Assembly: GCF_003018115.1 (NCBI RefSeq)
Contig: NZ_CP027457.1
Direction: 5' to 3' (one strand)
DNA length: 64,000 bases
Source of the DNA: Escherichia coli
Lineage (GTDB): Bacteria > Pseudomonadota > Gammaproteobacteria > Enterobacterales > Enterobacteriaceae
The position numbers were made by a program, and so were the translations under genes. Shown here one piece after another: positions 8,558 to 38,833 of the stretch. The number at the start of each line of letters is the position of its first letter. The first letter of the stretch is position 1. The notes under the pieces are model-generated. The model was not told the DNA's origin and ran no database searches. It saw only the letters and a list, made by a program, of their open reading frames with translations.

Positions 8558-9925
8558 TTAATCGCAGGCAACGATCTTCATTGCCAGGCCGCCGCGAGAG
8601 GTTTCGCGGTACTTGGCGTTCATATCTTTACCTGTTTCGTACATGGTTTCGATAACTTTATCGAGGCAGACGCGCGGCTCGCTGGTACGGCGCAGCGCCA
8701 TACGTGCGGCGTTCACCGCTTTTACTGCCGCAATGGCGTTACGCTCGATGCATGGCACCTGTACCTGTCCGGCGACCGGATCACACGTCAGACCGAGGTT
8801 GTGCTCCATGGCGATTTCCGCCGCGATGCACACCTGCGCCGGGCTTGCACCTAACAGTTCTGCCAGACCAGCCGCCGCCATTGAGCACGCCACACCAACT
8901 TCACCCTGGCAACCCACTTCGGCACCAGAAATCGACGCGTTCATCTTATAAAGAGAACCAATGGCGCTGGCTACCAGCAGGTAACGAGCCAGTGAGTTAG
9001 CGTTCACTTCGCGGATAAACTTATCGTAGTACGCCAGTACAGCCGGGATAATCCCGCACGCACCGTTAGTCGGCGCAGTCACCACGCGACCGCCAGCAGC
9101 GTTCTCTTCGTTCACTGCCAGTGCAAACATGTTGATCCAGTCAACAACCGCCATCGGGTCAGTGGTGGTTTTATCCTGGCTGACCAGCATCCGGCGTAGT
9201 GCCGCAGCACGGCGTGGTACGCGCAGTTTGCCAGGCAACACGCCTTCGGTGGATATACCGCGCTCAATACCGCCGCGCATGACTTCCCAGACGTTCGCCA
9301 GGTGCTGTTCCAGCTCTTCTTTGCTGTGCAGCGCCAGCTCGTTTTTCATCATCAGGCCAGAGAGTGACAGCCCGGTTTCCTGACAATGTTTTTGCAGATC
9401 GGCTGCTGAACTGTACGGATAAGGAACTTCAACCGGTGCGCTATCCTGCTGGCCAAAATGCTCTTCATCAACGATAAAGCCACCGCCAATAGAGTAGTAA
9501 GTCTGACTGTAAACGACTTTATCACCCGCCAGCGCGGTAATGCGCATACCATTTTCATGCAGAGAAAGGTTGTCGGCATGGAAGTTCATGCACTGATCAA
9601 CTGGGAACTCCACTTCATGCTGACCGTTTGCCAGCATCAGGCGACCATGAGTATTCACATCCTGAATAAAACCAGGGATGGAATCGATATCCACGGTATC
9701 CGGCAGGTTACCCGCCAGGCCCATAATAATGGCGATATCAGTGTGGTGGCCTTTACCAGTCAGAGAGAGCGAGCCGTACACGTCAACCACCACGCGGGTC
9801 ACGTCTTTAAGCAGGTTACGGGCAATCAGATCGTCGGTAAATTGTTTACCCGCTTTCATTGGTCCAACGGTATGAGAACTGGAAGGGCCAATGCCGATTT
9901 TGAAAATATCGAATACGCTAATCAT
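8558..9925 (-). CDS. sdaB: L-serine dehydratase 2
   Basis: 455-aa ORF MISVFDIFKIGIGPSSSHTVGPM..., Fe-S L-serine dehydratase family. Confidence 0.92.
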   Translation of the reverse strand: MISVFDIFKIGIGPSSSHTVGPMKAGKQFTDDLIARNLLKDVTRVVVDVYGSLSLTGKGHHTDIAIIMGLAGNLPDTVDIDSIPGFIQDVNTHGRLMLANGQHEVEFPVDQCMNFHADNLSLHENGMRITALAGDKVVYSQTYYSIGGGFIVDEEHFGQQDSAPVEVPYPYSSAADLQKHCQETGLSLSGLMMKNELALHSKEELEQHLANVWEVMRGGIERGISTEGVLPGKLRVPRRAAALRRMLVSQDKTTTDPMAVVDWINMFALAVNEENAAGGRVVTAPTNGACGIIPAVLAYYDKFIREVNANSLARYLLVASAIGSLYKMNASISGAEVGCQGEVGVACSMAAAGLAELLGASPAQVCIAAEIAMEHNLGLTCDPVAGQVQVPCIERNAIAAVKAVNAARMALRRTSEPRVCLDKVIETMYETGKDMNAKYRETSRGGLAMKIVACD

Positions 9926-9982
9926 AGGAAATACATCGCGTTAAAACGGAGGAAGCGCCGCCCGAAAGCGGCGCGAAAGGAC

Positions 9983-11272
9983 TTAGCTGAACAGAGAGTA
10001 GAAGATTGCGGAGATTGCAATCAGACCCATCACGACAACGAATACGTTGCTGATGTGACCGCTGTACTTACGCATTGCCGGTACTTTCTGAATTGCGTAC
10101 ATCGGCATCAGGAACAGGATCATCGCGATGATTGGGCCGCCCAGGGTTTCAATCATACCCAGGATGCTCGGGTTCAGGGTGGCAACAATCCAGGTCGTTA
10201 CCAGCATGAACAGCGCAGTGATACGGTTCAGCTTGTTGATTTCAATAGACTTACCTTTACCACGCAGAGATTTAATCACCATACCGTTGAAGCCTTCACG
10301 TGCGCCCAGGTAGTGGCCGAGGAAGGATTTGGTGATAGCGATAATCGCGATAATCGGAGCCATCCACGCGATAACCGGTGCGTTAAAGTGGTTAGCCAGG
10401 TAAGACAGAATCGAGATGTTCTGCTCTTTAGCCGCAGCCAGGTCTGCCGGAGTCAGGCTCAGTACGCAGCTGAAGACGAAGAACATTACGGTCAGCACCA
10501 TCATGATGTGTGCGAATGCCAGGATCTTCGAGCATTTCTGTTCTGCCATATCGCCGTACTCTTCACGCTTCGCAACGGCGAAAGAAGAGATGATCGGAGA
10601 GTGGTTGAACGAGAACACCATTACCGGAATTGCCAGCCACAGGGTCATCCACAGACCGTTTCCGGTTGCAGATGCAGTGTCCAGAGACAGCGTTTCCAGT
10701 GCTGCGCCGTTCCACTGCGGGATCAGGTACAGAGCCAGCAGCATCAGTACGCCAACAAACGGGAATACCAGAATACTCATCGCTTTAACGATCATCTGCT
10801 CACCGAAGCGAACGATGGTCATCATACCCACGATCAGGATCAGCGACAGAATCGCACGCGGCGGTGGCGTCATACCCAGCTGGTGAGACATGAAGCTTTC
10901 AACTGTATTGGTGATTGCCACGCTATAAACCAGCAGGATCGGGTAGATAGCGAAGAAGTAGAGCAGGGTAATCAGTTTACCTGCGCCAATACCAAAGTGT
11001 TCTTCTACAACCTCGGTGATGTCTTCGCCCGGGTTTTTACCAGACAGTACGAAGCGAGTCAGGCCGCGGTGAGCAAAAAACGTCATCGGGAACGCAAGGA
11101 TAGCCATGATGATCAGCGGGATCATACCGCCAACACCGGCGTTGATTGGCAGGAACAGCACGCCCGCGCCGATTGCCGTGCCGTAAAGGCCCAGCATCCA
11201 CATGGTGTCTGTCTTGCGCCAGGCACTACGAGAGTCTTTCGACGCAATCGTGCTGGTTTGAGTCGTTTCCAT
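9983..11272 (-). CDS. sdaC: serine:H+ symporter
   Basis: 429-aa membrane ORF upstream of sdaB. Confidence 0.9.
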
Positions 11273-11828
11273 CTATTTCTCCTGGAGGAATGCAAATAAT
11301 TCAGCTTTTAGCCAGTTCAGCCCGGGAAGGTGCCTGACCGTAAAAATGAAATCTGTCTATCGGCGATGGCTTAATCATTTACCGCCGTAATAATTTGAGG
11401 GCGGAAAGATACACACAAGTTATGTATCTATCAGTGATCTTGATCCCAAATACAATAATCTACTTGGAAGATAGATTATCCCAACGCTTTACTCTGTAAA
11501 TCAAAAGTAAAAGAGAATTTAAGGGCAATATTTTCCCATTAAACGACATCTGACTTCTTCCGGGGCGCGCAATATATGTAGGTTGAACTGAAAAAATCAA
11601 TACTTTTAGTTAATCATGGCGATAATTTCTTTTTCATAACGATAAAATACGGTTTATGAAAATAGGGAAACGTTTGCGTTGCAATATAAATTGTATGACA
11701 TATTAACTGTGATGATATTTGTCGCGTGAGGGTGGTAAGAAACATTTATATAACAAATGAAATGAGTTGATGAGTAAGTGACCAAAAACGAGAAAACCCG
11801 GCAACAAACGTCACCGGGGGAGCGGAGA

Positions 11829-13193
11829 TTACGTGCAGATTTCGTAGCAAGGGATGTAGGCTGAGCCTGGCAATTTCATACGATGCTGGGCAACAAAACC
11901 CTGTAGCAGGTCGTCCATACGACGCATAATCTCTTTATCGCCGTTGATTTTGTAAGGACCAAACTCTTCAATGGCGCGAATACCGACTTCTTTTACGTTA
12001 CCCGCCACAATACCGGAGAACGCACGGCGCAGGTCGGCAGCCAGCACTTCAACAGGTTGATCCGGGTAAAGCTTCAGATTAGCCATATTCTCGTGAGACG
12101 GCTCAAACGGCATTTGCAAATCTGGTGCAATGCGCATTGACCAGTTAAAGCTGTAAGCGTCACCAGTGTCGCGGCGATTTTCTTTCACCAGCGGCATCGA
12201 TTTTTTCATCTGACGAGCGACTTCAGCGGCGTCATCAATGATGATGCGGTAATGGCGGCGCGCGTTTTCACCCAGCGTATGCACGACAAACTCGTCCAGT
12301 ACGCGGAAGTAGTCGGCGCTCTCTTTCGGGCCGGTGAGGATCAATGGTAAAACCTGATCTTTATTGGCCGGGTTCATTAAAATTCCCAGCAAATACAGCA
12401 ATTCTTCTGCCGTACCCACACCGCCAGGGAAGATAATGATACCGTGAGCGATACGGACAAACGCTTCCAGACGTTTTTCGATATCCGGCATGATGATCAA
12501 TTCGTTGACCAGCGGGTTAGGCGGTTCAGCGGCGATAATTGACGGCTCTGTCATACCAATAAAACGACTGTCTTTGTAACGCTGCTGCGCGTGTCCGACC
12601 GCAGCACCTTTCATCGGCGCTTCCATCGCTCCCGGACCACAGCCGGTGCAGATATTCAGCTCACGCAGGCCCAGCTGGTTTCCGACGCGACGGGCATACA
12701 AATACTCATTTTCGTTAATTGAGTGACCGCCCCAGCAGACCACCATATTTGGCGCTTCACCCACATGCAGCGCGCGAGCGTTACGCAAGATGGAAAAGAC
12801 CAGGTTAGTGATGTGTACGGAGTTGTCGAGATTCAGGTTGGGAAAACGAACGGTGTTATGGATTTGCCCGTAAACGAAGAGAATGTCTCGCAGAACCGCG
12901 AACAAGTTGGCCTGCAAAGCGCGAATAATTCGCCCATCGACAAAAGCCTCTTCCGGGGGATTAATCAGTTCCAGCTTTACGCCGCGTTCACGGCGCAGGA
13001 CGTTAATATCGAAATTTTCAAAACGAGACAGCAATTCTTTGCTGTTATCGGTCAAACTACCGGAGTTCAGTACGGCAAGTGAACAGTTGCGAAACAGTTG
13101 ATAGAGGTCGCTGCTGGCGGTGCGTTTAAGCATATCCACTTCCAGCTGCGACAACATATCCATGGAGCCAAGCGGGCTAATATGTGTAATCAA
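11829..13193 (-). CDS. ppnN: pyrimidine/purine nucleotide 5'-monophosphate nucleosidase (LOG family)
   Basis: 454-aa [27 protein letters not shown]...; formerly ygdH. Confidence 0.85.
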
Positions 13194-14766: not shown

Positions 14767-14985
14767 TCCAAATACCCCATCTGGTTGTGAGAGATCTCTT
14801 ACAGACTCTGTAGGAGATCGCCAGGAAATAAGCGAATACTTAAAAAGATAAGAATCGTTATTTTCATTTAAAATCAAAATGTTGATTGTTAATTCTTAAC
14901 TTTCATATGAAATTTTCCTTAAGGCATTGTCTGTAAGCGCCTTGTAAGACTTCGCGAAAAAGACGATTCTATCTTCGTCGACAGG

Positions 14986-15343
14986 GAGTCAGACAACGAA
15001 GTGAACATCAGGATGATGACACTTCTGCAGGACACACCAGGATGGTGTTTCAGGGAAAGGCTTCTGGATGAAGCGAAGAGGATGACGCAGGACGCGTTAA
15101 AGGACACCTCCAGGATGGAGAATGAGAACCGGTCAGGATGATTCGGTGGGTCAGGAAGGCCAGGGACACTTCAGGATGAAGTATCACATCGGGGTGGTGT
15201 GAGCAGGAAGCAATAGTTCAGGATGAACGATTGGCCGCAAGGCCAGAGGAAAAGTTGTCAAGGATGAGCAGGGAGCAACAAAAGTAGCTGGAATGCTGCG
15301 AAACGAACCGGGAGCGCTGTGAATACAGTGCTCCCTTTTTTTA
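14986..15343 (+). ncRNA. csrB: CsrB small RNA (CsrA-sequestering)
   Basis: ORF-free segment with about 18 CAGGA(T/A)G / AGGA motifs spaced 10-25 nt apart, ending in hairpin GGAGCGCTGTGAATACAGTGCTCCC plus T8 (15311-15343); lies between syd and yqcC. Confidence 0.9.
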
Positions 15344-15387
15344 TTCCTGCTATCCTTCGCGGCAGTTTTTCTTATTGAGGTTGCTTT

Positions 15388-38760: not shown

Positions 38761-38833
38761 TGTGAGAGTAATCACGCTTCTGCTTTTTAAAATTATTTGA
38801 CAATACGAATATCACACTGTGATTACGATCACA
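38761..38833. promoter_or_regulatory. two CRP-type sites: TGTGAGAGTAATCACG (38761-38776) and perfect TGTGATTACGATCACA (38818-38833); TTGACA -35-like hexamer at 38797-38802
   Basis: Match to CRP consensus TGTGA-N6-TCACA read directly. Confidence 0.6.

Follow-up and report, generated by a model that had tools for sequence, protein, structure and literature searches.

The 556-bp interval between ppnN (ygdH) and sdaC was found to be, with a probability that we place at about 85%, the region that controls the sdaCB operon at the transcriptional and post-transcriptional levels, together with the terminator of ppnN, and it holds no separate gene. The region is the ordinary, already known control region of sdaCB. 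The initial annotation had read it as a long 5' leader or a complex promoter for sdaC, and this description agrees with what has already been published, since YieP, PurR, CRP and Lrp have been placed on the DNA and ArcZ on the leader. The relevant literature on the sdaCB (PsdaC) region comprises Shao/Newman 1994, Hollands 2007, Papenfort 2009, Cho 2011, Freddolino 2021, Heyde 2021 and Frendorf 2024. The published PsdaC region was the same DNA as the interval described here, and the YieP, PurR, CRP, PsdaC* and ArcZ sites could all be mapped onto it without conflict. The two did not differ in kind; the literature annotates the PsdaC promoter at an upstream TATATT, whereas our comparison pointed to a second, invariant promoter next to the CRP site.

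Extent, composition and conservation of the interval

The window, by which we mean the whole 64,000-nt stretch of Escherichia coli DNA that was analysed, was placed on MG1655 by converting window position x to coordinate 2939501 - x. The two reading frames that border the interval are as follows.

9983 to 11272, minus strand: sdaC open reading frame
11829 to 13193, minus strand: ppnN (ygdH) open reading frame

Because of the positions of these two frames, the gap is exactly 556 bp long, from 11273 to 11828, and corresponds to MG1655 2927673-2928228. In MG1655, ppnN ends at 2927672 and sdaC starts at 2928229, and the interval between them is unannotated in RefSeq.

The G+C content of the gap was 37.4%, compared with 50.8% for the whole window, and reached its minimum of 31-32% at 11500-11800 (200-nt windows). 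Inside the gap we found no ORF of at least 60 codons, and the longest internal one encoded 46 aa. The description of a 556-bp, AT-rich, ORF-free region upstream of sdaC was thus confirmed, and the absence of ORFs is unremarkable at this base composition. Two plus-strand ORFs antisense to sdaC (9458 to 11299 and 11146 to 11337) entered the edge of the gap by only a few dozen bases; the former, a 613-codon ORF opposite sdaB and sdaC, is most likely a shadow ORF. The gap had also been called unusually long. It was indeed the largest in the surrounding 15 kb, although near-equals lay close by, with 546 bp between fucA and fucP and 434 bp between gudP and yqcA, so its length is out of the ordinary yet not unique. 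Likewise, the several A/T tracts noted earlier were present, as 12 tracts of at least 4 nt were counted against 7.6 ± 2.4 expected from composition, but their enrichment was marginal (56 of 1000 shuffles reached 12), and no AA/TT periodicity of 10-11 bp, as would accompany A-tract phasing and curvature, was detected in the gap. A repeat or mobile element was ruled out; 5425 of the 5426 complete E. coli genomes carried one copy of the sequence each, and it contained no meaningful repeats. Elsewhere in the neighbourhood, the sRNA gene csrB lies at approximately 14977-15345 on the plus strand, as placed by coordinate mapping from the MG1655 annotation.

To compare the interval among relatives, SdaC homologs were sought in one genome per species, which yielded 80 loci. 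In 76 of them ppnN lay directly upstream of sdaC, and in all 76, which belong to the Enterobacteriaceae, the gap measured 436-648 bp. The gaps were aligned with MAFFT, and mean identity to E. coli was taken over 73 non-Escherichia sequences. The whole gap showed a mean identity of 0.43, compared with 0.57 at four-fold degenerate sites of sdaC, and 20-nt windows with more than 80% identity occurred solely within a 75-bp block at 11465-11392, which holds the CRP site and the hexamer pair CTGATA-17-TATCTT described below. The profile was therefore not one of uniformly low conservation, because identity was sharply concentrated in this single peak. As judged from the alignment, the peak marks protein-binding DNA and a core promoter and not an independent gene.

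Protein sites and candidate promoters

The upstream half of the interval contained the following elements, given in the order in which they lie between ppnN and sdaC.

11787 to 11818, minus strand: ppnN (ygdH) intrinsic terminator, hairpin CCCGGTGACGTTTGTTGCCGGG followed by a T-run (terminator scan, Term-seq)
11744 to 11758, minus strand: YieP binding site 1, ATTTGTTATATAAAT (match to 'Site 1' of Freddolino 2021)
11689 to 11703, minus strand: YieP binding site 2, ATATGTCATACAATT, at the IPOD-HR/ChIP-exo occupancy peak (Freddolino 2021)
11664 to 11679, unstranded: PurR operator, ACGCAAACGTTTCCCT in the sense direction and AGGGAAACGTTTGCGT on the plus strand (consensus match, ChIP-chip)
11571 to 11600, minus strand: sigma70 promoter-like signal with -35 TTGATT (11600-11595), an 18-nt spacer, -10 TATATT (11576-11571) and a GC-rich discriminator (promoter scan)

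The terminator scan placed the ppnN stem at 11818-11797, and a Term-seq 3' end at MG1655 2927709 (window 11792) has been classed as primary for ygdH (Adams 2021 supplement). The element thus combines the GC-rich hairpin, U-tract and mapped 3' end of a Rho-independent terminator. Its identity to other genera was only 0.18, as expected for a terminator. The same 3' end (2927709/10) was bicyclomycin-sensitive, with a ratio of 2.2 and p = 8e-10 (Adams 2021), so read-through into the gap appears to be limited by Rho. The Adams 2021 supplement also lists a Term-seq 3' end at window 11151 (MG1655 2928350), 121 nt into the sdaC reading frame, where transcripts may be processed or may terminate early.

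Freddolino 2021 (PMC8282354) reported an occupancy peak here in rich medium, identified YieP by pull-down, demonstrated YieP binding by EMSA and ChIP-exo, and observed effects of scrambling the two sites in lacZ reporters. We found that site 1 and site 2 form an inverted repeat. Identity outside Escherichia was approximately 0.06 for site 1 (taken over 11755-11741, which is offset by 3 nt), and identity to other genera was 0.40 for site 2.

When up to three mismatches to ACGCAAACGTTTGCGT were allowed, the PurR operator, with two, was the sole match in the 64-kb window. Cho 2011 (PMC3159470) reported a PurR ChIP-chip peak at sdaC-sdaB whose motif is identical to 11664-11679, with a log ratio of 2.08 with adenine and 0.83 without, and those authors stated that serine transport is regulated by PurR. 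The element is therefore a PurR-bound 16-bp palindrome that matches the consensus. It lies 9 bp from YieP site 2, downstream in the direction of sdaC. Freddolino 2021 did not include it in the set of annotated sites, although it had been reported by Cho 2011. PurR binding is also specific to purine-containing rich medium, and given the 9-bp distance the rich-medium IPOD-HR peak may reflect both proteins. With operators of the pur regulon the sdaC box shares the 16-bp palindromic form, the CAAACGTTT core and adenine-enhanced binding. In the PurR-repressed pur regulon the operator lies over the core promoter; unlike those operators, the sdaC box is placed well upstream, at approximately 107 bp from the nearer candidate start and approximately 272 bp from the conserved one.

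A PurR-like box at four or fewer mismatches was kept in 49 of 77 sequences. In these 49 box-bearing sequences the distance from the box to the CRP site was 231-234 bp, and in 38 of them it was 232 bp. The DNA between the two sites was 40-50% identical, and the lengths of the flanking segments differed by tens to hundreds of bases. This pattern suggests that the PurR-to-CRP spacing may be under a length or phase constraint.

The other DNA sites fall within the conserved 75-bp block.

11449 to 11465, minus strand: conserved A/T-rich block AGTAGATTATTGTATTT, directly upstream of the CRP site (alignment)
11433 to 11448, unstranded: CRP site TGGGATCAAGATCACT, centred at 11440.5 (consensus, ChIP-seq, conservation)
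11406 to 11434, minus strand: predicted native core promoter with -35 CTGATA (11434-11429), a 17-nt spacer and -10 TATCTT (11411-11406) (conservation, weight matrix, geometry)

The CRP site had two mismatches to TGTGA-N6-TCACA, and the pattern match alone did not exceed chance. Under the sdaC CRP ChIP-seq peak of ETEC H10407, the predicted site is the reverse complement of 11448-11433 (Haycocks 2015), where the allele is TGAGA compared with TGGGA here, and the identity of the 16-mer across genera was 0.86 (73 non-Escherichia sequences). Expression of sdaC is induced by added cAMP, and sdaC is CRP-regulated, with a cya mutant selecting cAMP-independent promoter mutations (Frendorf 2024). The site is thus occupied in vivo according to ChIP-seq, and expression depends on CRP-cAMP according to the literature. 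A second CRP-like site at 11433-11418 (Haycocks 2015) was rejected as a further element; it overlaps the first by one base, the centres are 15 bp apart, and joint occupancy is sterically unlikely. Elsewhere in the window, a perfect CRP palindrome, TGTGATTACGATCACA, was present at 38818-38833; Haycocks 2015 lists this sequence as the CRP target of ygcW/yqcE.

A simple sigma70 weight-matrix scan was run on every one of the 77 sequences. CTGATA-17-TATCTT was the only promoter-like signal that scored at least 3.5 in 77 of 77, and identity over the 73 non-Escherichia sequences was 0.92 for the CTGATA -35 and 0.97 for the TATCTT -10. The CRP site and the ATGTATC motif, which contains the TATCTT -10, were spaced identically in 72 of 72 sequences, and TCACT was separated from the TATCTT -10 by exactly 21 nt. 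At class II CRP-dependent promoters, such as galP1, CRP is centred at -41.5. The 21-nt spacing corresponds to this class II arrangement, from which we infer that CTGATA-17-TATCTT is the native cAMP-dependent class II promoter, with a predicted start near 11399 and a leader of approximately 127 nt. A second conserved -10-like hexamer, AATTAT/AATAGT (11395-11390), could place the start near 11383 instead. With class II CRP promoters sdaC shares a CRP core that ends 21 nt before a TAnnnT -10, a -35 that overlaps the CRP site and dependence on cAMP; its CRP site departs from the class II models in two core mismatches (TGGGA...TCACT). The supplements of Kim 2012 and Yan 2018 contained no start-site entry for sdaC.

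The A/T-rich block directly upstream of the CRP site is possibly an Lrp site or a contact for alpha-CTD. Published work places Lrp among the regulators on this DNA, and Freddolino 2021 mentions an EcoCyc Lrp site approximately 200 bp downstream of the YieP peak. The Lrp consensus YAGHAWATTWTDCTR gave one 3-mismatch match in this block, at 11451-11465; in all, 85 such matches were counted and 80 were expected, which is the level of chance. A two-armed candidate was also considered and rejected, as its left arm is displaced by 4 nt in E. coli and its arms fall on the -35 and the -10.

The upstream signal, TTGATT-18-TATATT, had the best weight-matrix score in the E. coli sequence (10.6). Heyde 2021 (Table S1) lists the PsdaC* mutations as insertions of A at MG1655 2927924 (window 11577) and of ATT at 2927928 (window 11573); these promoter-up insertions were isolated in a cya mutant, and the resulting expression was cAMP-independent (Heyde 2021, Frendorf 2024). 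On our coordinates they map inside or adjoining TATATT, and by sequence logic the ATT insertion would convert TATATT to the consensus TATAAT. Frendorf 2024 placed the sdaC promoter at this TATATT, which is the only published assignment, and also stated that no sdaC promoter had been experimentally verified. That paper credits the annotated sdaC start to Huerta and Collado-Vides 2003, which we read as a computational prediction.

These data could also be read as showing a single upstream promoter, TTGATT-18-TATATT, with a start at approximately 11564 and a leader of approximately 292 nt, in which case 11465-11392 would act as RNA, as a roadblock or as operator DNA. This reading would account for the position of the PsdaC* up-mutations in its -10, for the Frendorf 2024 annotation and for the high score, and it puts the YieP and PurR sites at the more usual distances of -107 to -190. 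However, it leaves the CRP site at approximately +123, which does not fit the activation of sdaC by CRP and cAMP. To our knowledge, CRP at approximately +123 cannot activate transcription by known mechanisms. Moreover, the mutations were selected precisely where CRP activation was absent, in the cya mutant, and the 307-nt leader folded no better than shuffles (z = -0.55). In contrast to the invariant downstream promoter, a promoter-like score for the upstream element was kept in only 7 of 77 sequences, and its identity over the 73 non-Escherichia sequences was 0.38-0.52 (0.38 for TTGATT and 0.50 for TATATT). We consider a single upstream promoter unlikely.

Leader RNA and the search for a hidden gene

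Three elements were placed in the RNA that precedes the sdaC start codon.

11273 to 11399, minus strand: predicted sdaC 5' leader, approximately 127 nt (approximately 292 nt from the upstream promoter), as given by promoter placement
11274 to 11285, minus strand: Shine-Dalgarno sequence (GGAG, 11282-11279) and ArcZ pairing site at -13 to -2, CCAGGAGAAAUA (literature, conservation)
11300 to 11338, minus strand: degenerate hairpin remnant, UCAG 11337-11334 with CUGA 11304-11301 (alignment, covariation)

Pairing of ArcZ with sdaC at -13 to -2 was described by Papenfort 2009, as cited in a review of ArcZ, and sdaC mRNA is lowered by ArcZ overexpression in E. coli. We found that TTCCTCCAGGAG at the Shine-Dalgarno/ArcZ site is conserved across genera. 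The duplex predicted with MG1655 ArcZ included 11284-11274, but its energy was indistinguishable from that of shuffles (114 of 300), and the support for ArcZ therefore comes from the literature. The pair shows the seed complementarity and sRNA-dependent repression of an Hfq-dependent sRNA target. In comparison with the repression of ribosome-binding sites known for ArcZ-sdaC and ArcZ-STM3216, the seed lies across the Shine-Dalgarno sequence at -13 to -2 and the target is conserved, and no difference was found.

Further upstream in the leader, a hairpin with the arms GUCAGG/CCUGAC was present in several genera, among them Salmonella, Citrobacter, Enterobacter and Lelliottia, and a U-run often comes after it (for example at loci L009, L020 and L047, upstream of position 2501). 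In an alignment of 49 sequences (A1), 85.2% of the cells were paired compared with 73.4% in shuffles, and 34 double-sided changes were counted compared with 11.5; none of 500 shuffles reached either the pairing or the change count, and controls in which the arms were slid gave 14-38% pairing. A proximal alternative pairing of this hairpin was rejected, as it showed no covariation. The hairpin is cut to 4 bp in Escherichia and is absent from the short-leader genera Klebsiella, Raoultella, Yokenella and Trabulsiella. Separately, an inverted repeat, CCGCC-N13-GGCGG, was observed at 11381-11403, directly after the conserved -10, where it would be the 5'-terminal hairpin of the predicted transcript. 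The 3' arm of this repeat varies among genera, yet in every case it appears able to pair, in one register or another, with the constant UUUCCGCCCG.

The covarying hairpin raises the question of whether the leader is a cis-acting regulatory RNA, such as an attenuator, riboswitch or thermosensor, through which serine or some other signal controls sdaCB. Its position approximately 15-25 nt upstream of the Shine-Dalgarno sequence, the compensatory changes among the 49 sequences and the U-run that follows it in Salmonella and Citrobacter would suit such a role. Its degeneration in Escherichia and its loss from the four short-leader genera argue against this role, as does the folding of the E. coli leader, whose z-score against shuffles was +0.82 for 145 nt. 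RNAalifold revealed no conserved leader structure except a 3-bp stem at the Shine-Dalgarno sequence, with a consensus energy of about -0.8 kcal/mol, and neither an Rfam match nor a conserved leader peptide was obtained, nor do the Term-seq tables list any 3' end within the E. coli leader. Neither Rfam, folding z-scores nor RNAalifold therefore indicated a riboswitch or other structured cis-regulatory leader, and we regard a cis-acting regulatory RNA as highly improbable.

The initial annotation had also allowed that the gap could hide a small RNA or a small protein, and our results supported neither. An independent small RNA gene on either strand might have been expected from the length and AT-richness of the gap, its many promoter-like hexamers and the existence of Rho-sensitive read-through from ppnN. 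However, a scan of the gap against Rfam at a permissive E-value gave only chance-level hits (E of at least 3.7, with bit scores well below the gathering thresholds), the terminator scan found no terminator in the gap besides that of ppnN, and among the 3' ends listed in the Adams 2021 tables, which cover three growth conditions, none falls between 2927710 and 2928350, whichever strand is considered. The RefSeq annotation of K-12 shows neither an sRNA nor a small-protein gene here, although known sRNAs such as csrB are annotated nearby, and the conservation tracks palindromic protein sites and not a transcript-shaped unit. Given the lack of a second terminator, internal 3' end, Rfam family or annotation, and leader folding no better than that of shuffles, an sRNA gene in the gap is extremely unlikely.

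A small protein or upstream ORF was judged to have an equally slight chance. The candidates were a 25-codon ATG ORF at 11378-11301 and a 29-codon ATG ORF at 11549, both on the sdaC strand and the former within the predicted leader. However, other genera carry ATT or ATC in place of the ATG at 11378, with a start kept in 3 of 73 sequences and the ORF in none, and the 29-codon ORF was likewise intact in none of the 73; no recognisable Shine-Dalgarno sequence precedes either ORF, and none is annotated in K-12 RefSeq. More generally, ORFs of at least 10 codons on both strands were intact in 0-2 of the 73 sequences outside Escherichia, with the exception of an 11-codon TTG ORF over the CRP site that was intact in 19 of 73 and lacks a Shine-Dalgarno sequence. 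No ORF thus showed the conserved start codon, Shine-Dalgarno sequence and frame of a small protein or leader peptide.

A model for sdaCB control

Based on these results, we propose the following reading of the interval. Transcripts of ppnN end at the intrinsic terminator, as the mapped 3' end shows. The two Escherichia-specific YieP sites activate sdaC in nutrient-rich medium, and the PurR operator is bound when purines are present, as others have shown for both proteins. Approximately 290 nt upstream of the ATG there would be a weak, poorly conserved promoter, TTGATT-18-TATATT, whose -10 the PsdaC* insertions may improve. The class II CRP promoter in the 75-bp block would be the ancestral and main cAMP-responsive promoter of sdaCB and would produce the approximately 127-nt leader. 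At the end of the leader, Hfq-dependent ArcZ pairs across the Shine-Dalgarno sequence and represses translation, as others have shown, mainly in Salmonella.

There would thus be two promoters, a conserved class II promoter for cAMP-dependent expression and an Escherichia-specific upstream promoter nearer to the YieP and PurR sites. The upstream promoter plausibly drives YieP-dependent expression in glucose-rich medium, and it would be the one strengthened by the insertions obtained in the cya background. Such an arrangement would explain why selection without cAMP struck approximately 130 bp upstream of the CRP site and not at the promoter next to it. Additionally, the YieP sites lie 290-345 bp from the inferred downstream start, which is far for a classical activator, so action of YieP on the upstream promoter fits better. 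The gap would be long and AT-rich because it accommodates at least two promoters and a large number of stacked sites for DNA-binding proteins.

A more specific form of this model, which we regard as quite unlikely in its entirety, holds that the real cAMP-responsive promoter is the unmapped class II promoter starting at approximately 11399, that this promoter ends a length-locked module in which PurR and CRP are separated by 232 ± 1 bp, or approximately 22 helical turns, and that PsdaC* is a separate bypass promoter. If it were true, the length-locked spacing would suggest a looped or Lrp-wrapped PurR-Lrp-CRP complex that links purine, leucine/serine and carbon status.

The 556-bp stretch that had appeared empty is accounted for by known regulators and so should not be pursued as a new gene. 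The present analysis makes small additions, namely the promoter placement, the 232-bp PurR-CRP spacing and the leader hairpin with its covarying arms, of which Escherichia keeps a degenerate form. An invariant CRP class II promoter approximately 165 bp downstream of the annotated one would alter the reading of PsdaC* and of the YieP reporter results. SdaC takes up serine and prevents lysis on glucose depletion, and because of this physiological role the control logic of sdaCB is of some interest, although it holds no surprise.
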